DNA of 64,000 bases, taken from positions 4,358 to 68,357 of IMG/VR virus record IMGVR_UViG_3300049574_000143; one strand, given 5' to 3'. Under the pieces are notes generated by a model. That model searched no databases. It saw only the letters and a list, made by a program, of their open reading frames with translations, and was not told the DNA's origin. Below, in pieces: positions 25,451 through 42,575 of this stretch. Position 1 is the first letter of the stretch. The number at the start of each line of letters is the position of its first letter. This stretch comes from a virus. Lineage: Duplodnaviria; Caudoviricetes. The translations under genes and the position numbers were made by a program.

Positions 25451-26446
25451 ATGCCGAGACGCTCACCTACCGTTGCCGACGTTGGCTGGGACTTCATGGA
25501 AGCCCTTCAGCGGGCCGGATCACCCCAGAACACGTACCGGGTCTACCGCTCCAACTGGTCATCCATGCTCGATGAGTTGGGCGGTAGGGCGATCACCAGC
25601 ATCACCCCGGCAGATCTGGGAAGGTACTGCGACGGAGGCGGATCCGAGGCGACCAGGAAGATGCGCCGACGGATCGCCAACCACGTCATGCGCCACGCCT
25701 ACCGACGGGGCGACGTGCGGTCTGTAGTACTCGTCCCTGAGCCCTCGTACAAACCGCGCACAAAGCAGAACGCGGAGTGGACTCGGTACAGCAGCGAGCA
25801 ACTCAGACGACTCATCCTATCGGCGCCCTGCCCGAGAAGTAGGGCCGCTATCGCTATCGGCGTTTACACGGCCATGCGGATAGAGGACATACGTCTCCTG
25901 CGAGCGCCTTCCCCTGACCTCGCGGATGGCTGGCTGGCAGCCTTTATCCACAAGACCAAAGTCTATGATTTCAAAGTGATTTCGGGGGGATTGGATGAGG
26001 AGATACGGCTTTATCTGTCGTGGCTCTACAGTCACGGTCCGACCAGGGCCGAGGACTATCTGATACCGGGTTATCCACCGTCCAACAGGGGTGATGGTTA
26101 CCTGGACGGTATCGATCTTAGCCGGCCCATCTCGAAGCACGCGCTGTATACGCGATATGCCGAAGCGAGGGACAGGGCCGAACTGCCGTACATGAAACAG
26201 GAGAAGTGGCACACCGTACGCCGCTCGTCGGCTCGACTGTTTTTCGAGTTGGCATCCGACCGGGGGTACGACATGGCACTCAGGATGACTCAGGCGTTCC
26301 TGAACCATAAATCTGTGCAGACGACCGAGCGGTACATAGGTATCGACTCAGCGTATGCGATGCGAGATGACTTCCTCCGTGAGCACGACTTGCTGGGTGC
26401 TCAGGGGGACGTTGTGACCCTACGGGGGCGGGAAGCGGGTCGATAG
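25451..26446 (+). CDS. int: Tyrosine recombinase/integrase (XerC/D-like architecture)
   Basis: YTAMR (Arg), HKTK, HTVRR (HxxR), LNHKSVQTTERY (His, Tyr); N-terminal SAM-like core-binding region. Confidence 0.9.
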   Translation: MPRRSPTVADVGWDFMEALQRAGSPQNTYRVYRSNWSSMLDELGGRAITSITPADLGRYCDGGGSEATRKMRRRIANHVMRHAYRRGDVRSVVLVPEPSYKPRTKQNAEWTRYSSEQLRRLILSAPCPRSRAAIAIGVYTAMRIEDIRLLRAPSPDLADGWLAAFIHKTKVYDFKVISGGLDEEIRLYLSWLYSHGPTRAEDYLIPGYPPSNRGDGYLDGIDLSRPISKHALYTRYAEARDRAELPYMKQEKWHTVRRSSARLFFELASDRGYDMALRMTQAFLNHKSVQTTERYIGIDSAYAMRDDFLREHDLLGAQGDVVTLRGREAGR

Positions 26447-27016: not shown

Positions 27017-27421
27017 ATGATGTCCCTCCCCGCAAACCAGTCCGGAGAAGGCCTGAGCCGCAGGCAACAGAAGGACTACTTCGCTGAGTGGCTGAGGCGC
27101 ACCATGGCCAACAGCGGCGTCTCCGGTGGAGAGGTAGCGCGAGCTCTGAACGTCAACGACTCGGCCGTCAGTCGGTGGCGGAGCGGTAAGGCGACACCTG
27201 GACTTGAATCAGTCCAGAGCCTTGCGGAATTCCTTAACGTCGACCCAATCCGCCTGGCGGTGACAGCGGGCCTGTTGAAGCCCGAAGTAGTAAAATCGGA
27301 GATGCTTCCACTTCCGCCCGACACGGCGCAACGACAATTCGTCCGAGAGCAAATCTCCAAGATCCCCGGACTTACGGATGAGGAGAAAGCCAGACTTCTG
27401 GAGGCCTACGACGATGAGTGA
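27017..27421 (+). CDS. XRE-family immunity repressor
   Basis: HTH VSGGEVARALNVNDSAVSRWRSGKATP; AGGAG RBS; adjacent to the recombinase. Confidence 0.85.
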   Translation: MMSLPANQSGEGLSRRQQKDYFAEWLRRTMANSGVSGGEVARALNVNDSAVSRWRSGKATPGLESVQSLAEFLNVDPIRLAVTAGLLKPEVVKSEMLPLPPDTAQRQFVREQISKIPGLTDEEKARLLEAYDDE

Positions 27422-29113: not shown

Positions 29114-29290
29114 TCAGCCCTTGTTGGGCACGACGTACGTGACGCCCAGGGCGCCCAGTACGGCAAGGACGACGGTGACGACGTCACCGGTCGACAGGGA
29201 GCCGTCGGCGGTCGCCGTCAGGAGCGTGCCGGTGGCGGCAGCGGCTGCGGCGACGACGGCCTTGGCCATCGAGGAGAGCTTGACGAGCAT
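29114..29290 (-). CDS. Holin (58 aa, two TM)
   Basis: Manual translation MLVKLSSMAKAVVAAAAAATGTLLTATADGSLSTGDVVTVVLAVLGALGVTYVVPNKG; directly after the endolysin. Confidence 0.8.
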   Translation of the reverse strand: MLVKLSSMAKAVVAAAAAATGTLLTATADGSLSTGDVVTVVLAVLGALGVTYVVPNKG

Positions 29291-29309
29291 TTAGTTGTGA
29301 TCCTTTCGC

Positions 29310-30080
29310 TTACCGCGGGACCTTGAGCTTGTCCCACGTGGTCTTGCCCGGCCACCCGTCGGCGTCCGAGCCACTGAAGCCGCACTTCCGCTGCCAGGCG
29401 GCGTACGACTCCCTGTCGACGTCGGTCCACTGGGGACCGGGGCCGACCTTGTACTTGCCGCACTTCTCGGCGACAAGCCGCTGTCCCATGTGCTCGATCA
29501 CGGGCGCGTTCGGCTTCCGCTGGAACCACGCGGTGCCGGGGAACGCCTGGAATGTGCCCTGGGACGTCTTGACGGGCGCAGAGCTGGGCGCCGGAGCACT
29601 GGTCGATGCCCCGGTGTACGCCGGCCGCCCGAAGCCGGCGATGTCGTGCACGTAGCGCACCTTGCGGGCGCAGACGTTGCCGATGTTGCCTTCGATGGTG
29701 TAGACGGTGGCGCCGTCGGTGCCGGTGACGACTCCGACGTGATCGATCGCGCCGATGGACGAGGAGCCGTCCCAGTCGAAGAAGACGACGTCGCCCCTAC
29801 GGATACCGCTGGCGACGACGCCGTTCGTCATCGCGTGCCACTCGCCGCGAGACTGGAAGGCCTGGGCGTGGGCGACGGTGTAGGCGTACTTCGCGTTGAA
29901 GCACACCGGACCCTGGACGCCGGCGTGGTACGCCCAGTAGGTGACGGCCTGGTCGCACCAGGGCTCACCGTTGAGGCCGTACCACTCGGTGATGTAGTTG
30001 ACGTTGTCGCCGTTGTGCTCACCGACACCGAGGGACTTCTCGGCCTGGGCGATGAACGCTTCGATCTGCGCGTTGCTCAC
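29310..30080 (-). CDS. Endolysin: CHAP domain plus C-terminal peptidoglycan-binding domain
   Basis: WCDQAV (Cys), GDVVFFDW, HVGVV (His), TIEGN; C-terminal WQRKCG..G..ADGWPGKTTW. Confidence 0.9.
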   Translation of the reverse strand: MSNAQIEAFIAQAEKSLGVGEHNGDNVNYITEWYGLNGEPWCDQAVTYWAYHAGVQGPVCFNAKYAYTVAHAQAFQSRGEWHAMTNGVVASGIRRGDVVFFDWDGSSSIGAIDHVGVVTGTDGATVYTIEGNIGNVCARKVRYVHDIAGFGRPAYTGASTSAPAPSSAPVKTSQGTFQAFPGTAWFQRKPNAPVIEHMGQRLVAEKCGKYKVGPGPQWTDVDRESYAAWQRKCGFSGSDADGWPGKTTWDKLKVPR

Positions 30081-30352
30081 GCCGACACCCCCTCGATGTG
30101 CGGGGCGTACACGCCCTTGACGGGCGCACCGAAGGCTTCGGTGAGCCTCTCTTCCTCGTCGGCCGCCGTGGGCGGCGTACGGGGCTCCCAGCCGGCCGGC
30201 GGGTTGAACTCCTGCTGGCCGGTATCGGGGTCCCTGACGCACTGCGTGCCCTTCGGGGGCATGTCGGACGGCGGCTCGACGGTCTCGGCGTCGTGCTCCC
30301 CGAACACCTTCTCGATGAGGCTCTCGCCCTCTTCCGCGTGCTTTCCGCTCAC
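30077..30352 (-). CDS. Small acidic hypothetical protein
   Basis: GAAGGGAAG RBS; coupled to both neighbours; LxExFG twice. Confidence 0.7.
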   Translation of the reverse strand: MSGKHAEEGESLIEKVFGEHDAETVEPPSDMPPKGTQCVRDPDTGQQEFNPPAGWEPRTPPTAADEEERLTEAFGAPVKGVYAPHIEGVSA

Positions 30353-30882
30353 GAGAGCTTCCCTTCGAACTCGGCGAGCGCCTTGGTGAGCGCCTCGCGC
30401 ACGGTCTGGCCGGCGTTGGTGAGCTGGTTCAGGGCGGCCTGGACCTGCCCGTGGCGGGACTCCAGGTCGTCGAGCGCCTTCTGCTTGTCGGCCAGTCCCT
30501 GCGTGCGTATCTGCTGCGCCTCCAGGACGGCCTGACCCTTGATGCCCTCGGCCTGTGTGGTGGCGTCGGCGACGATGCCGGCGGCCTGGCTCTTGGCGTC
30601 CGCGACGTGCTTGTCCGCGGTCTCCTGCGCCAGCGTGAGGATCTTCTCGGCGGAGCCGGCCGGTGAAGCGCTGGTGACGAGCGGGAGCTGCGTCGTGGGC
30701 GCCTCGGTCGGCCGGCTCTCCAGGATCCGGATACGGTCCTGGGCGGCGTTGTACTGCTGCTCCAGGACCGCGAGCTGGTCCGCCACCTGGTCCAGGAAGT
30801 CGTCGACCTCATCCTGGTCGTATCCCTCACGGAGCCTGGTGGTGGCGAACCGCTTCTTGTTGATGTCGGCGGGTGTCAACAT
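30349..30882 (-). CDS. divIVA: DivIVA/Wag31 family protein
   Basis: MLTPADINKKRFATTRLREGYDQDEVDDFLDQV is the actinobacterial DivIVA N-terminal signature; second coiled coil SAEKILTLAQETAD...A. Confidence 0.9.
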   Translation of the reverse strand: MLTPADINKKRFATTRLREGYDQDEVDDFLDQVADQLAVLEQQYNAAQDRIRILESRPTEAPTTQLPLVTSASPAGSAEKILTLAQETADKHVADAKSQAAGIVADATTQAEGIKGQAVLEAQQIRTQGLADKQKALDDLESRHGQVQAALNQLTNAGQTVREALTKALAEFEGKLS

Positions 30883-30892
30883 CGATTACTCC

Positions 30893-32248
30893 TTACTTCC
30901 AGTGGTGGTGGCCCCAGTGGTGGTGCCGGTGGTGGTGGTGCGCGACGGAACCCGTCGGCAGCCTCAGCACCTGGCCAGGGAAGATGAGGTCGGGGTTGTC
31001 ACCGACGACGTCCCTGTTTGCGGCGTAGAGGGCCGGCCACCCGCCGGGAACGTTGTGCTCCCTGGCGATCTTGTCGAGGTAGTCACCGACGACGACCGTG
31101 TAGGTACCGTCCGTGCTACTAACCGGGGGCGGAGTAGTAGTTCCATCGCCACCGCCGGTCGACGGGGGCGGCGTGGTGCTGCCACCGTCCGAGGGCGGGG
31201 GCGTGGTCGTTCCGCCATCCGACGGGGGCGGGTTGGTATCGCCGGTGTTACCACCAGTGGCGCTACCATCCGCGGGGACGAACGGCGCCGGCCGGACCAT
31301 GGCGGTACGGGCGGAGGGGCCGCGGCCGGAGCGCTCATCCATGAACGACCAGTTGACGTTCGGGCGCGCGGGGTGCCGGCTGTTCGTCTCGATCAGGTCT
31401 TCGCCGTTCGGCCCGATGGGTCCGACGTACAGCGCGACGTGACCTCCCTCGAACCCGTCGTAGGTGACGAGGTCACCCGGGAGCAGGTTGGCTGTCGAGG
31501 TGACCAGCGTGGCCTGGGGGCCGACGTTGGACGGGACCTCCTGGGAGTAGGAGTCACGGGCCGACTCGGTGAAGTCGACGCCGCCAGCCTTCCAGGCCTG
31601 CGAGGTGAGCCCCGAGCAGTCCCATCCGCCGTCCTGCGGGCCGTTGCCGCCGTAGACGTACGGAAGGTTGTAGCCGATCGCTGCGATGGCGTACTTGACC
31701 GCCAGGTCGGCCGGGGAGCCTTCCTTCGGCTTCGGCACGGTGGCGCCGGTGATCGGGTCGAGGGTTCCCGTGCTCGCCGGCGTGGTGGCCGGCGGAGTGG
31801 TAGTGGTCGTAGTTCCCGGGGCCGTACCTGGGTTGCCGGGGTTGGCATCCGCCTTGGTCAGGAGACCCTGGCAGGAGCCGTTCGAGAGGTCGCCGGTGTT
31901 GAACGTGATGGTCGACCAGGCATCCGGCCCCTGGTCTGCGAGCACCTTCTCGGCGATCGCTATCTGCTGAGCCTTCGTGGCCTGCTCCGCGCTGGGCGCG
32001 TAAGCAGTGCCTCCATATGCCGCCCACGTGGACGGGATGATCTGAAGCCCGCCGCCGCCAGGCGCATTCCAGTTTCCGGACGACTCACATGAAGCGAGCT
32101 GGTCCCACTGGGATTCGGTGGCGGCAGAAGCGGAACTGGCGAAGGTCGCGGGAACAGCGACAGCTCCAAGCCCAACGGTTGCACCGAGGGCTATCTTCTT
32201 CATCGTCGTCGTGTTGGTCGGCTGGCGGTGGCGTCCGTGCGTCACCAT
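30893..32248 (-). CDS. Secreted Rpf-like transglycosylase, NlpC/P60 peptidase and LysM protein
   Basis: GRHR plus signal peptide; [17 protein letters not shown]...TW..YGG...[14 protein letters not shown]; PYVYGG..DCSGL..GHVALY; [12 protein letters not shown]...[11 protein letters not shown]. Confidence 0.92.
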
Positions 32249-32249
32249 T

Positions 32250-32510
32250 TCACCTTCCTATCACACTGTAAATCGTCACTCCCGCGCTAACTAGCGCACC
32301 CAGAAAGCTGGTTGGGAGCATGTAGCGCCAACGCTCAAGAGAACGCAGTCGGTTCTCATGGTCTTCGCGCTGCTTTGCATCCGCTTCTCTGTCGTCGCGA
32401 ATGCCTTTGAGGGTGGTCTCGATACGCGCCAGCCTTTCGGCGACGAGAATCATCCAGCCCTCAGTACTAGGGACCGCCGGTATTCCCTGCGGTGGAGTCT
32501 CGTCACTCAT
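32250..32510 (-). CDS. Coiled-coil protein with C-terminal TM (holin-like or lysis accessory)
   Basis: [21 protein letters not shown] plus hydrophobic C-terminus; first gene of the lysis block. Confidence 0.7.
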
Positions 32511-32520
32511 GAGGCTGCGA

Positions 32521-32733
32521 TCAGGGCAGTTCAGTGATCGAGATGATGAAGGGCGATACGTCGAGTCGACCGACCGAATAGCCCTCGTACGGGCCGCCGG
32601 TTCCGATCTGAGACTTCGTCCAGGTGATGCTGTCCAGGATTGCCTGCTGCTCCGATATGTCGCCGTCGGAGTACTCGCTCACCGTGGTGAAGTTGGTCCC
32701 ATCGTTTATCGCCAGGTCGTACCTGTACCTCAT
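32521..32733 (-). CDS. Hypothetical protein
   Basis: AGGAGG RBS; follows the tail genes. Confidence 0.7.
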   Translation of the reverse strand: MRYRYDLAINDGTNFTTVSEYSDGDISEQQAILDSITWTKSQIGTGGPYEGYSVGRLDVSPFIISITELP

Positions 32734-38810: not shown

Positions 38811-41800
38811 TTATGTAAGACGTGAACCAGTGCCCTTGCTGAGCATGATGCGCAGCTTCGGAATTACCTCGCTGTCGAGCTTCTCCACAGCGGCCTTATC
38901 GAGATTGCCCGCCACAGAGATGGGCATCGAGACATGGACGCCGCCACCGTGGCCGCCGCCACGAATAGCCTTGGAGAGTTCGTGATTGCTGTCGATTCCT
39001 TCGCCGCCCCGGAAATTGATCATTTCCGGACCCTGCTCGCCGACGAGCGCCCAGCCTGAGGTGGCGCCGGCGGTGCCGCTCGCGTAGGCAGCACCGGTCG
39101 GGACCCGGCCGCCGTAAACGGCTCGAATGTAGGCCGCGGCAGCAGCCATATTCGCAAGCGGGTCAAGGATGTTGTTGGAAGTTCCAGCAACGTGGTACTT
39201 CGAGAAGTTGGGCGGAATGATCTGCATCAGACCCTGGGACGGGATACCGTTCTTGGCGTTGATGTCCCAGGTGTTGATGGCGTTCGGATTACCACTCGAC
39301 TCGATCTGCATTCGCAGAAGGAATGCATCGATCTGCGACGGGTCGATACCACCCATCTTCATCGCCTGAATGGCCAGAGCGCGCCATGCCTGTACCGACT
39401 GGGCGCCGGCCACGGCGTGAGACTCGTAACTGGCCTTGGCCTCGGAGTCCTTTTTCGCGAACCAGTCGATCGCCGACTTGGCGACCTTCTTGGCTGCCGC
39501 GACAGGGATCTTGCCGACGTCGCCGCCCTGGTTGAAGGCGTTCAGCGGGCCGAGCAGGGCGTTGATCGCCGTCTCGAAGGCCGCCCGGCCGATGAAGCCG
39601 AGCACCGCGCCGCCCAGGTCGCCGACACCGGGGATACCGATGCCGGACAGGCCGGCCGAGCTGGAGGTGCCGGCGCCGCCGGGGTTCTTGCCCGGGGTCT
39701 GGCCCACCGTGCCCGACGTCTGGCCGGGGTGGCTCGGGTCGGGTGCCGGGATCTCGGACGGCAGGACGCCACCCGCGGCGAAGGACCAGCCCGGGTTGGG
39801 GCCGGACCGGTGCCAGGCCTCCACTCCGCCCAGGCCGGAGACGATGCCGCCGGCCGCGAAGCCGGGGAGCATGTCACTGAAGCCGGCCTTTCCGCCACGA
39901 CCGTTGGAGAAGTGGTAGTTGGCCGCGTGGACGAAGCCGGCGCCCAGACCGGCGACAGCCTCGGGAACGAGGATGCCTTCGCCGGGGGACAGTGCCGCGG
40001 TGACGGTGTCGTTACCGGGCGAGTAGCCGCCCAGGACGCCGCCGCCCTCGAACTGGTTGATCCCGCCGCCGACGATGCCGCCCTTGGCGAAGCCGCCGCC
40101 GGGCGTCGTGCCGCCGGGGGCGGTGCTACCGCCGCCGCCTCCGCCACCACCGCCGCCGCCTACGTGCGGCACCGGGTTCTTGCCCCAGAGGTGAAGACCG
40201 ACCTTTTCGGCGATCGACTCGATGCCGTTGGCGATTCCGTTGATGACGTCGATGACCGCGTTGACGGCATCGGTGACGATGCTCTTGATCTTGTCCCAGG
40301 CGCTGCTGGCGACCTTGCCGAGCCCGTCCCAGAAGTCGCTCCAGAGCTTCTTCACGGTCGAACTGAAGGTGTCCCAGATCGACTTGACGCCGTCCAGGAA
40401 TGTCTGCCAGAGCTTCTTGATCCCGTCCCAGACCGTCTGAGCGGCCGACTTGATGGCGTTCCAGAAGGTCTGCCAGGCTGACTTCAGTGCGTTCGAGACG
40501 GTGTTCCAGATCGTGCGGACGCCATTCAGGAAGGTCTGCCACGCCGTTTTCATGGCGTTCCAGACCGTCTGAGCGGCCGTCTTCAGAGCGTTCCAGAACG
40601 TCTGCCAAGCCGTCTTCAGCGCGTTCGAGACCGTTGTCCAGACGGTCTTCACCGCGTTGAGGAACGCGTCCCACGCCGTTTTCATGGCGTTCCAGACCGT
40701 CTGAGCGGCCGTCTTCAGCGCGTTCCAGAACGTCTGCCAGGCAGTCGTCAGTGCAGAACTGACGGTCTGCCAGACCTGCTGGAGCCCCTGGATGAATGTC
40801 TGCCAGGCGGTCTTCAGCGCGTTCCATACAGCCTCAGCCGCAGTCTTCAGCGCATTCCAGAAGGCGCTCCAGGCGGCAGTGAGGGCGCCGGAGACCGCCT
40901 GCCACGCCGTGGTGAAGGCGGTAGCTACCGCCTGCCACGCCGTCTTCAGCGCGTTCCAGACAGCCTCGGCAGCCGTCTTCAGTCCGTTCCAGGTGGCGTT
41001 CCAGGCGGTGGTGATCGCGCTGGCCGTCGCACTCCAGGCCGTAGCGAAGGCGCTGGCGACAGCGCCCCACGCGACCTTCAGCGCGTTCCAGACAGCCTCG
41101 CCGGCGGTCTTCAGTCCGTTCCAGGTGGCGTTCCAGGCGGTGACCATCGCGCTGGATACGGCCTGCCATGCTGTACTCAGGGCGGACACCGTGGCCTGCC
41201 AGGCAACCTGGAGGGCCTGCCAGACGGCCTCGGCGGCCGTCTTCATGGCGCCCCACACCGTGGACCAGTGCGTGACCAGCTCGTAGATGCCGATAGCGAC
41301 AGCGGCCAGGGCGAGGACGACGAGACCGATGGTGGCGATGAGCGGAAGCGCCGCGGCATCTACGCCGAGCAGCGAGGCCGCGAAGGCGGTCATGCCGCCG
41401 CCGCCAGTGAAGGCCGCCATGCCGGCGGCTTCGCACGCCGCCGAGAGGGCTGCGATGCCGCTGCTGATCGCCTGGACGATCATCATGCCCTGCATGGCGG
41501 ACTTCCAGAGCAGCCATGCGTCAGCGATCGCTTGAATGACCCCCGGAGGCATTGCCCCGATGATCTGGAGGAGGGCAGTCGACAGAAGGAGCGCCTGGGG
41601 CGCCATTCCGGAGAAGGCCGATCCCACGCTCTTCAGGGCGCCCCCGAGGGCGCTGAAGAAGTCCTTGATGGCAGGGCCGTTGTCGTGGACGTATTGCAGG
41701 AACTTCTGAAAACCCCCACCGTCGGCCCACGCCTTCAGGTTCGAGGAGCCCTCGGCAAGCACCTTGATGAGTTGCTGCCCGAGAGGCAGGAAGGCGCGGA

Positions 41801-42575
41801 AGCCGTCACCGAGAACGGTTGCAACGTTCTTGCCGATGGTTATGAATTCCTGAAGCGCCGGGACGCCGTTTGACTTCAGTAGATTGATCCAGCCATCGAG
41901 CTTTGTATCGACCCAATGCTGAAAAGCTGTGGCAAGACCGTTGGCGAGAGGGGTAACCGCAGAAACGAGGGGGGCCAGCTTACCCACACCCTCGGCCAGG
42001 GCGTTTATGAACCTGGCAGCGACACTAAGGGTTTGGCCCTGAGTTGCACCAATGAATTTGCCCCAGGCGGTAGTTAGATTCTGTGTCGCATCAAGGAAGG
42101 CCTTTTGAGCCGGAGTTGCATTGGCTACGACGTGGTTGTACTCGTCTTGCAGCTTGTTGACTTCCTTCAGCTGCTTGCCGTACTGGTCGGTTCCTGGCGT
42201 CATTTCAGCCAGGACCTTCTTCGCCTCGCCCAGCTGCTGAGAGAGGCCAACGAGTCCGGTGTTCGTGTTATCTATGGCCTGGACGGCACCCCTCAGGGCG
42301 ACACCCCACACGCCGGCCGCGCCTGCTGCTGCGGCGGATGAGGCCGCGAGGCCACCCGCAACGGCTACCAGCCCCGCGCCAAGGGGGACCAGAGCCGGGC
42401 CGAAGGAGGTGGCAGCCGCTACAGCCAGCTCGATGCGCCCGGACCAGGAGTTGAGGTTGTTGGTGCTCCTCTTGGTGCTGTTGTCGAAGTCGTCGATGTC
42501 GCGGCGAGCCCGGCGGAGGCCACCACCGTCATACCTGGAGAAGATCTGGAATGTCAGGCTGGTGATGGTGGCCAT
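38811..42575 (-). CDS. Tape measure protein with C-terminal SLT lytic transglycosylase
   Basis: 1254 aa, Ala-rich, Trp-periodic repeats; IESSGNPNA...GLMQ..DPLANMAAA..YI...YG. Confidence 0.95.
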   Translation of the reverse strand: MATITSLTFQIFSRYDGGGLRRARRDIDDFDNSTKRSTNNLNSWSGRIELAVAAATSFGPALVPLGAGLVAVAGGLAASSAAAAGAAGVWGVALRGAVQAIDNTNTGLVGLSQQLGEAKKVLAEMTPGTDQYGKQLKEVNKLQDEYNHVVANATPAQKAFLDATQNLTTAWGKFIGATQGQTLSVAARFINALAEGVGKLAPLVSAVTPLANGLATAFQHWVDTKLDGWINLLKSNGVPALQEFITIGKNVATVLGDGFRAFLPLGQQLIKVLAEGSSNLKAWADGGGFQKFLQYVHDNGPAIKDFFSALGGALKSVGSAFSGMAPQALLLSTALLQIIGAMPPGVIQAIADAWLLWKSAMQGMMIVQAISSGIAALSAACEAAGMAAFTGGGGMTAFAASLLGVDAAALPLIATIGLVVLALAAVAIGIYELVTHWSTVWGAMKTAAEAVWQALQVAWQATVSALSTAWQAVSSAMVTAWNATWNGLKTAGEAVWNALKVAWGAVASAFATAWSATASAITTAWNATWNGLKTAAEAVWNALKTAWQAVATAFTTAWQAVSGALTAAWSAFWNALKTAAEAVWNALKTAWQTFIQGLQQVWQTVSSALTTAWQTFWNALKTAAQTVWNAMKTAWDAFLNAVKTVWTTVSNALKTAWQTFWNALKTAAQTVWNAMKTAWQTFLNGVRTIWNTVSNALKSAWQTFWNAIKSAAQTVWDGIKKLWQTFLDGVKSIWDTFSSTVKKLWSDFWDGLGKVASSAWDKIKSIVTDAVNAVIDVINGIANGIESIAEKVGLHLWGKNPVPHVGGGGGGGGGGGSTAPGGTTPGGGFAKGGIVGGGINQFEGGGVLGGYSPGNDTVTAALSPGEGILVPEAVAGLGAGFVHAANYHFSNGRGGKAGFSDMLPGFAAGGIVSGLGGVEAWHRSGPNPGWSFAAGGVLPSEIPAPDPSHPGQTSGTVGQTPGKNPGGAGTSSSAGLSGIGIPGVGDLGGAVLGFIGRAAFETAINALLGPLNAFNQGGDVGKIPVAAAKKVAKSAIDWFAKKDSEAKASYESHAVAGAQSVQAWRALAIQAMKMGGIDPSQIDAFLLRMQIESSGNPNAINTWDINAKNGIPSQGLMQIIPPNFSKYHVAGTSNNILDPLANMAAAAAYIRAVYGGRVPTGAAYASGTAGATSGWALVGEQGPEMINFRGGEGIDSNHELSKAIRGGGHGGGVHVSMPISVAGNLDKAAVEKLDSEVIPKLRIMLSKGTGSRLT
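40430..41260 (-). repeat. 11/22-aa Trp-periodic repeats in the tape measure
   Basis: ALKTAWQTFWN / AAEAVWN / AAQTVWN units with near-identical DNA. Confidence 0.85.

Follow-up and report, generated by a model that had tools for sequence, protein, structure and literature searches.

A phage lysis region of Streptomyces-type hosts extended by a predicted exported hydrolase and a compact viral DivIVA

We analyzed a 64-kb stretch of phage DNA (the window) from the 68,357-bp IMG/VR record IMGVR_UViG_3300049574_000143, for which CheckV estimates a completeness of 78%. At the end of the minus-strand late operon, right after the tail genes, the window holds a cassette of six genes, here called g1 to g6. 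Judged from its sequence, this locus is a lysis region that has been extended by an exported cell-wall hydrolase and by a DivIVA encoded by the virus. In the direction of transcription, the six genes and the terminator behind them are as follows.

32250..32510, minus strand: g1, an 86-residue XhlA-like protein that starts with a coiled coil and is anchored by a transmembrane segment at its C-terminus
30893..32248, minus strand: g2, a 451-residue protein in which a signal peptide is followed by Rpf, NlpC/P60 and LysM domains and then by a C-terminal stretch rich in His
30349..30882, minus strand: g3, a compact DivIVA paralogue of 177 residues
30077..30352, minus strand: g4, a 91-residue acidic protein with no family match
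29310..30080, minus strand: g5, a cytoplasmic CHAP-type endolysin of 256 residues with a C-terminal wall-binding region
29114..29290, minus strand: g6, final gene of the late operon, for a 58-residue putative holin in which inspection shows two hydrophobic segments
29062-29039, minus strand: an intrinsic terminator that closes the late operon, with an 8-bp GC-rich stem CCCCTTGG...CCTTGGGGGG followed by TTTTTT

An earlier sequence-only reading of this DNA had described six tightly packed minus-strand open reading frames (ORFs) closed by a terminator, and the arrangement, the coordinates and the terminator are all borne out. Gaps of 1, 10 and 19 nt separate g1 from g2, g2 from g3 and g5 from g6, respectively, and a GTGA overlap joins g3 to g4 and g4 to g5. 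No promoter-like site was found inside the six-gene block, and the only terminator is the one after the holin gene. Given these short spacers (1-19 nt) or 4-nt overlaps and the lack of an internal promoter-like site, the six genes appear to be transcribed together with the late genes.

The second gene encodes a predicted exported, multidomain wall hydrolase. By inspection of the translation, g2 opens with a Sec-type signal peptide that ends ASA/A, and all of its orthologues start in the same fashion, with a basic n-region, a hydrophobic core and an AxA motif. The Rpf domain matches PF06737 at 84.6 bits (cut-off 27; E-value 7.6e-24), the NlpC/P60 domain matches PF00877 at 39.7 bits (cut-off 23; 5.1e-10), and the LysM domain matches PF01476 at 27.6 bits (2.9e-6), above the Pfam cut-off. 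The catalytic motifs are intact in the translation, with CESSGNW in the Rpf domain and DCSG and GGHV in the NlpC/P60 domain. Among relatives the second catalytic domain is interchangeable and can be NlpC/P60, M23, CAP with M23, or NlpC/P60 with M23. The His-rich tail that follows LysM in the window (30893-30940) could serve in binding to metal or to the cell wall. Of the orthologues examined, the closest (L006; L-numbers denote loci) stops at LysM.

Directly downstream of the hydrolase gene, g3 encodes a protein that matches the DivIVA family PF05103 at 58.4 bits (cut-off 28; 9.4e-16). Residues 2-55 match the solved N-terminal domains of Wag31 (6lfa) and Bacillus subtilis DivIVA (2wuj/2wuk) in a phmmer search. 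An AlphaFold2 model with a pLDDT (predicted local distance difference test) of 81.5 consists of a helix at residues 4-8, a loop, a helix at 23-56, a disordered stretch at 61-75 and a helix at 77-176. Over residues 2-40, g3 is 62% identical to Streptomyces DivIVA and has the same KxF-TTRLREGYD loop; it is also colinear with the second coiled coil of the host protein, at 30% identity. The host's Pro/Gln/Gly-rich linker of ~110 residues is mostly missing from g3, in which ~20 residues (57-76; pLDDT <50 at 61-75) take its place, and the host's C-terminal tail of ~90 residues is wholly missing. Actinobacterial DivIVA proteins are marked by a long disordered segment that separates the N-terminal from the C-terminal domain (PMC13463852), and g3 does not show this hallmark. 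The five phosphorylation sites mapped in Streptomyces coelicolor DivIVA, T304 to S355 (10.1101/2021.03.01.433328), all lie in the tail that is absent from g3.

The loop of g3 is the counterpart of the loop by which B. subtilis DivIVA binds membranes, and it retains a hydrophobic residue between basic ones (R16, L17 and R18, with R16 nearly invariant). The C-terminal coiled coil, colinear with that of the host in alignment and model, is the predicted self-association region. In Wag31, the N-terminal domain serves recruitment and the C-terminal domain serves self-association and polar accumulation (PMC13463852); on this division of labor, g3 would keep both working parts and drop the spacer and the regulated tail. 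A protein search returned about 30 full-length relatives of 164-203 residues and 38-77% identity. Across 32 g3 relatives spanning this same range of identity, 13 residues are invariant, and the reading frames are intact. In each of five Streptomyces genomes with such prophages, a host DivIVA of 355-386 residues is present alongside the compact prophage copy.

The evidence that sets g2 and g3 apart from the rest of the cassette comes from their relatives. We took the genomic context of each g3 relative on a contig long enough to show its neighbors, and in 15 of 15 Rpf-type cassettes with a DivIVA gene, that gene comes after one for an exported Rpf-type hydrolase. Thirteen of these cassettes were reached from the DivIVA side (the window, L002, L004, L006, L008 to L012, L016 to L018 and L025); the other two, L069 and L070, were reached from the hydrolase side, and in both the next gene was divIVA. 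The contexts from the g3 search (L002, L004, L006 and L008 to L012) follow one order, namely hydrolase, DivIVA, usually a small acidic ORF, CHAP endolysin and holin. They include a Streptomyces microflavus prophage with an integrase nearby (L008) and a Streptomyces hydrogenans prophage (L009), and prophages of the family are present in the culture-collection strains S. hydrogenans JCM 4771, Streptomyces roseolus JCM 4411 and Streptomyces solincola T5. In host genomes, divIVA and rpf are separate, non-adjacent matches.

The pairing is kept through several kinds of rearrangement. It persists across tail-module exchange, next to unrelated tail genes in L002, and it persists in L025, where the endolysin gene has come to precede the hydrolase gene and divIVA still follows the latter. 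In L004, a gene of the endonuclease VII family (PF02945, L004:9431-9982) sits between the hydrolase gene and divIVA and looks like a mobile insertion. A second type of pair also exists, in which a hydrolase with a signal peptide and LysM, Excalibur and SLT domains is followed by a DivIVA-like gene of 233-237 residues (PF05103, 1.5e-12). These SLT-type pairs (L014:5711-7702 and L015:624-2381) lie between replication genes and the large terminase gene, with no endolysin beside them, and belong to a different phage group; L014 comes from a 56-kb phage that CheckV rates 100% complete.

A scan for the DUF5047 tail protein picked up 26 loci, from Streptomyces genomes and from viral contigs, and we checked these with hidden Markov models. 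With the loci described above added, eleven distinct phages of this tail module (the window included) carry both genes and ~15 carry neither, and DivIVA alone was found in none of the phages with this module that we checked. Those with neither gene have a simple cassette made up of a transmembrane and coiled-coil protein, an amidase-type endolysin and a holin. The sequence-only reading had proposed co-occurrence of divIVA and rpf in related phages as a check, and the two genes do co-occur, which supports that reading: a hydrolase upstream in 15/15 DivIVA cassettes, and ~15 phages of the same tail module without either gene. On a tree of the tail protein, the distribution of the pair needs three changes (joint gains or losses) by parsimony, and well-supported branches force one of them; with a single forced origin, shared descent explains much of the pairing pattern. 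The hydrolase also occurs by itself. In G406, the genes directly after that for an exported Rpf-M23 hydrolase are those of g4, a CHAP endolysin and a holin, and the 57-kb record contains no DivIVA, so the enzyme does not need DivIVA. The dependence is thus one-sided: the hydrolase occurs without DivIVA, and DivIVA was never seen without a hydrolase.

Some members of the family show local peculiarities. In the S. solincola T5 prophage (L011, L020 and L029; L011:5146-6988), the hydrolase is split in two frames, with the signal peptide and Rpf in one and LysM and M23 in the next, and the downstream DivIVA is intact; the split could be a frameshift, a sequencing error or a sign of a decaying gene. 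In L070, a 329-nt non-coding gap (L070:5938-6265) separates divIVA from g4, which overlap by 4 nt in the window; a promoter or an RNA element in this gap could divide the operon at that point. L004 has an extra 130-residue gene between g4 and the endolysin. Within the signal peptides, 12 of the 13 tabulated DivIVA-adjacent hydrolases have the motif G-[KR]-H-x-[KR]-P in the basic n-region, ahead of the hydrophobic core; it was noted in the window (32248-32200) and in L004, L006, L009, L015 to L018 and L025. The DivIVA-less hydrolase apparently lacks the motif, with the start codon of that gene uncertain. We considered the motif as a docking signal for DivIVA. It is also present in many host Streptomyces Rpf proteins, though not in the Kitasatospora ones whose N-termini were read, and so it is not a phage-specific docking signal; we keep a docking role as speculation only.

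Among the remaining genes of the cassette, g4 has no detectable similarity to a Pfam or PHROG family. Its conserved part is the C-terminal ~40 residues, with the consensus EEELLxxxFGEPDxxGVY, represented in the window by EEERLTEAFGAPVKGVY. In the N-terminal half, contigs from several soil sequencing runs diverge from the window at 30274-30311, with loose ends on both sides; unlike the conserved C-terminal motif, this half is a recombination or variability hot spot. When 1.84 billion representative proteins were searched with a profile, 132 matched, almost all of them 41-97 residues long. Two natural fusions place the g4 motif at the N-terminus of a CHAP endolysin (P0261 and P0343), and a membrane-anchored protein that ends in the motif (P0270) is encoded directly upstream of a CHAP-PG_binding_1 endolysin; the loci of these three proteins are L054, L055 and L056. 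The L055 fusion contig also has a weak Pfam match to PRD1_DD, a family named after phage PRD1, and separate SLT and NlpC/P60 genes. Together with three further viral contigs found by the DNA motif, these contexts place the g4 motif directly upstream of, or fused to, a CHAP endolysin.

Neither DivIVA nor an exported Rpf hydrolase was found in those g4-motif loci, and DivIVA was found nowhere in the two whole g4-motif records searched (L057 and L058). Conversely, g4 is absent from two DivIVA cassettes, L025 and L069. We therefore rejected g4 as a partner of DivIVA, as it tracks the CHAP endolysin instead. The natural fusions argue for a physical link between the two proteins. Binding of g4 to the endolysin is the most likely reading, and g4 could then act as a chaperone, as a tether or as a regulator of the pro-peptide type. 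The sequence-only reading had treated all six genes as one system. As a single unit this does not hold, because the g4 motif accompanies CHAP endolysins where DivIVA is absent: g4, the CHAP endolysin and the holin form an independent and much more widespread core that does without DivIVA and Rpf. By gene content, the cassette is better divided into three parts, namely an ordinary lysis core (g4, endolysin and holin), a variable g1, and a rare accessory pair of hydrolase and DivIVA.

Within the core, the length of g5 needed correction. A length of 310 residues describes only the maximal ORF; the true start is most likely GTG 30080, which lies behind a GAGGGGG ribosome-binding site, overlaps the g4 stop and gives 256 residues, and the orthologues are 243-252 residues long. 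The label of CHAP endolysin is sound for the family, in which 9 of 11 orthologues match PF05257 and Cys42 and His114 are invariant in the alignment; it does not extend to the Pfam scores of g5 itself, which are below threshold (Amidase_6, 18.4 bits; NlpC/P60, 17.8 bits). Against PHROG endolysin families, g5 matches at 4.7e-27 and 9.9e-26, and its gene has 73% nucleotide identity to the endolysin genes of Streptomyces phages Intolerant and Stuff.

The holin label of g6 is putative. Position, size, hydrophobic segments and a language-model search, in which a look-alike Atlas cluster named 'putative holin' scores 0.94, all speak for it; there is no Pfam or PHROG match. Orthologues occupy the same position in L002, L008, L011, L016, L025 and L070, and in L004, L006, L010 and L069 this position is taken by a Phage_r1t_holin gene. 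At the other end of the cassette, g1 resembles an XhlA-like membrane protein of the lysis region, set in a slot whose content differs among relatives. It matches phrog_5225 at 1.8e-11 and, weakly, the holin family phrog_689 and DUF2951. XhlA itself (PF10779) gives no Pfam match, and the likeness is one of architecture and position; an Atlas neighbor search listed small phage proteins, among them an XhlA-named cluster at 0.94, a lead only, in which 13% of the members carry XhlA. Orthologues of g1 are found in L006, L009, L018, L025, L069 and L070.

Elsewhere in the window, three features bear on the lifestyle of the phage and on its wall-degrading repertoire.

25451-26446: tyrosine integrase
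27017-27421: repressor-like gene with a Cro/C1-type helix-turn-helix domain
38811..42575, minus strand: tape measure protein with an SLT lytic transglycosylase domain (PF01464, 1.7e-10, residues 1068-1167)

The integrase and the Cro/C1-type gene indicate that the phage is temperate, and from its gene content we take the window virus to be a temperate siphophage of Streptomyces-type hosts. The cassette relatives include Streptomyces prophages. With Streptomyces as the host lineage, the premise of a filamentous host in the sequence-only reading holds, as does its count of four peptidoglycan-hydrolase domains in the genome (SLT in the tape measure protein and Rpf, NlpC/P60 and the CHAP-type endolysin in the cassette). 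The other tail-side genes before the cassette encode a 1,329-residue tail protein, a DUF5047 protein, a 299-residue protein and a 70-residue ORF. The last of these (32521-32733), between the tail genes and g1, is skipped in contigs that join 32510 straight to 32748. This join was seen in four soil metagenome runs from four studies, which points to a common natural variant without the 70-residue ORF. Near-identical copies of the cassette are present in soil and rhizosphere metagenomes of six studies, and the record itself may stem from one of these.

The accessory pair is rare among sequenced genomes. A phage-type DivIVA was detected at E <= 1e-28 in none of 400 other sampled Streptomyces species genomes, and tblastn with three family members found no actinophage DivIVA among 50,697 GenBank phage records, matching only Listeria, Enterococcus and faecal records. 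One of these is Enterococcus phage VEsP-2 (MZ333461.1, 884-1282), in which a DivIVA-like gene annotated as 'cell division initiation protein' lies near one end of the record; unannotated Listeria 'phage' fragments give similar DivIVA matches. These Firmicute matches may be host DNA at prophage borders or genuine phage genes. No PHROG family matches the g3 DivIVA or g4. Single-sequence scans of viral contigs for DivIVA and the hydrolase returned nothing and an alignment-based scan worked, and for g4 an alignment scan of viral contigs gave nothing confirmable and a DNA motif scan worked. In full-text literature searches, no account of a lysis cassette with a DivIVA encoded by a phage was found.

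How such a pair might act is suggested by work in other bacteria. In Listeria, the LysM autolysins p60 and MurA depend for their secretion on DivIVA, which has been proposed to draw the pre-proteins of both enzymes to the site of division (PMC3478244). The Streptococcus suis DivIVA, for its part, is a binding partner of the wall hydrolase MltG and determines its position (PMC10269899). By analogy, we propose, at somewhat less than an even chance, that the compact DivIVA couples hydrolase export or action, or a disturbance of the tip complex, to zones of new wall, and that the CHAP endolysin completes lysis. Because of the comparative pattern across relatives, the DivIVA copy would work with the exported enzyme and not with the endolysin. 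Late in infection, it would assemble on the cytoplasmic face of the membrane at the sites typical of DivIVA (hyphal tips, nascent branches and cross-walls), either alone or mixed with host DivIVA. From there, it would either direct the site at which the pre-hydrolase is exported or disturb the host tip-growth complex, and in both variants the wall would be cut from outside in the zones where it is newly made. The CHAP endolysin released by the holin would then finish lysis. We put forward tip-directed lysis as a hypothesis, and we regard as doubtful its more specific form, in which a minimal polarity scaffold encoded by the phage sets where the secreted hydrolase opens the hypha, be it at tips, branch points or cross-walls.

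Several observations weigh against this proposal. The contacts among the cassette proteins are putative, and the Listeria precedent relies on the SecA2 route. The presence of the pair is largely structured by clade, such that much of the co-occurrence could be shared descent, and the lysis cassette of G406 has an exported Rpf hydrolase but no DivIVA. Rpf proteins of Streptomyces hosts share the n-region motif with the pre-hydrolases. Finally, a DivIVA made late could act on the host tip-growth complex with no link to the hydrolase.

This last possibility is the strongest of the alternatives, and we judge it unlikely, though with a real prospect of being correct. The phage DivIVA would poison growth or wall synthesis independently of the hydrolase, or would block superinfecting phages; the trimmed protein would co-assemble with host DivIVA, leading to host shut-off before lysis or to exclusion at DivIVA-marked sites. 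A protein that keeps the N-terminal domain and the C-terminal coiled coil without the linker and the phosphosite tail (10.1101/2021.03.01.433328) would suit such a role, and the hydrolase, to judge from G406, can function without DivIVA. There is also precedent for phages that target host DivIVA, as in papers on mycobacteriophage Fruitloop gp52 and Wag31. However, action on the host complex leaves the constant adjacency to an exported hydrolase unexplained, including that of the SLT-type pair elsewhere in the genome, and superinfection exclusion in lysogens fits poorly with a late-operon gene that has no promoter of its own.

It is quite improbable, in our assessment, that the two genes are passengers, a pair captured once from a host and carried by descent, adjacent without a joint function and with a dispensable DivIVA. 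The single origin forced by well-supported branches of the tail tree agrees with this account, as does the rarity of the family (0/400 other Streptomyces species genomes and no GenBank actinophage). Yet 13 residues have stayed invariant across 32 relatives down to 38% identity, in intact frames, and host divIVA and rpf are not adjacent in host genomes. The pairing has also outlasted domain swaps, a change of gene order, tail-module exchange and an endonuclease insertion, and a second, SLT-based pair exists.

We give still less credence to a role in propagation or lysogenic conversion, in which the secreted Rpf protein would wake spores or neighboring hyphae and DivIVA would promote branching, to provide more susceptible growing tips for the phage or a benefit for the lysogen. 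Host Rpf proteins of the same architecture are common secreted enzymes in Streptomyces and Kitasatospora, papers link Rpf proteins to resuscitation and spore germination, and the integrase and the repressor-like helix-turn-helix gene mark the phage as temperate. The placement of the genes speaks against it: they sit inside the late operon, with 1-19-nt spacers, stop/start overlaps, no promoter-like site and a single terminator, which makes expression in lysogens unlikely. That the Rpf-NlpC/P60-LysM protein is a virion-associated entry enzyme, placed here as it follows the tail genes, is barely credible. In its favor are the position of g2 directly after the tail genes, its PHROG matches to tail lysins and tape measure proteins with the same domains, and the known occurrence of Rpf motifs in tape measure proteins of mycobacteriophages. 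Against it, a Sec-type signal peptide that looks cleavable, as would be unexpected in a virion protein, opens every orthologue, the tape measure already has an SLT domain, and in L025 the hydrolase gene follows the endolysin.

Lysis by holin and endolysin is usually viewed as a process without spatial control. Hyphae, in turn, are long, multi-compartment cells that build wall only at their tips, and their lysis by phages is poorly understood. If the polarity-scaffold form of the hypothesis is correct, it would represent virus-encoded spatial control of lysis, and it would suggest that host DivIVA similarly guides host enzymes of the Rpf type. A conserved phage DivIVA beside an exported hydrolase offers a genetically tractable entry to the lysis of hyphae. 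As a natural minimal DivIVA, with little more than an N-terminal domain and a coiled coil, g3 could help to dissect the parts of the host protein. Beside the CHAP endolysins of actinophages, the unannotated g4 motif family is widespread, and it may constitute a new kind of endolysin regulator.

The cassette combines features of several known systems. Among lysis cassettes, that of mycobacteriophage Ms6 consists of the chaperone-like protein gp1, LysA, LysB and two holin-like proteins; there, a small gene overlaps the start of the endolysin gene (gp1/lysA), as g4 does with g5. In the PBSX order xhlA-xhlB-xlyA, a coiled-coil membrane protein precedes the holin and endolysin, as g1 does here, where the holin comes last. 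Unlike Ms6, the present cassette has no LysB, and its DivIVA and exported Rpf hydrolase are without counterpart in either system. The joining of a glycan cutter to an endopeptidase in g2 is reminiscent of mycobacteria, in which RpfB works with RipA. The secreted Rpf proteins of Streptomycetaceae (RpfA and RpfD types) share the signal peptide, Rpf domain and LysM with g2, and host proteins that combine Rpf and LysM with M23 or NlpC/P60, enzymes of g2-like architecture that are common in the secretions of Streptomyces and Kitasatospora, are 45-66% identical to it in the N-terminal part. Compared with these host enzymes, g2 is encoded by a phage, within a lysis region, is paired with DivIVA and bears a His-rich tail, and the phage hydrolases swap their second catalytic domain freely among relatives.

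On the DivIVA side, the host protein of Streptomyces, the organizer of hyphal tips, and Wag31 of Corynebacteriales are the nearest comparison; g3 differs from them in being phage-encoded and part of a late lysis operon. Another phage protein that deals with the host DivIVA system is Fruitloop gp52, which is reportedly a small protein, expressed early or in lysogeny, that binds and inactivates host Wag31. However, gp52 is unrelated to DivIVA, whereas the protein described here is itself a DivIVA homologue, encoded in the late operon. The closest parallel to the pair as a whole is found in Listeria monocytogenes, where DivIVA is tied to exported LysM wall hydrolases, one of which, p60, joins LysM to NlpC/P60 in the manner of g2, and where secretion is proposed to be limited to places at which the wall is fresh. 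In Listeria, the genes lie apart on the chromosome and the system depends on SecA2, whereas the phage genes are adjacent and their functional link is putative.

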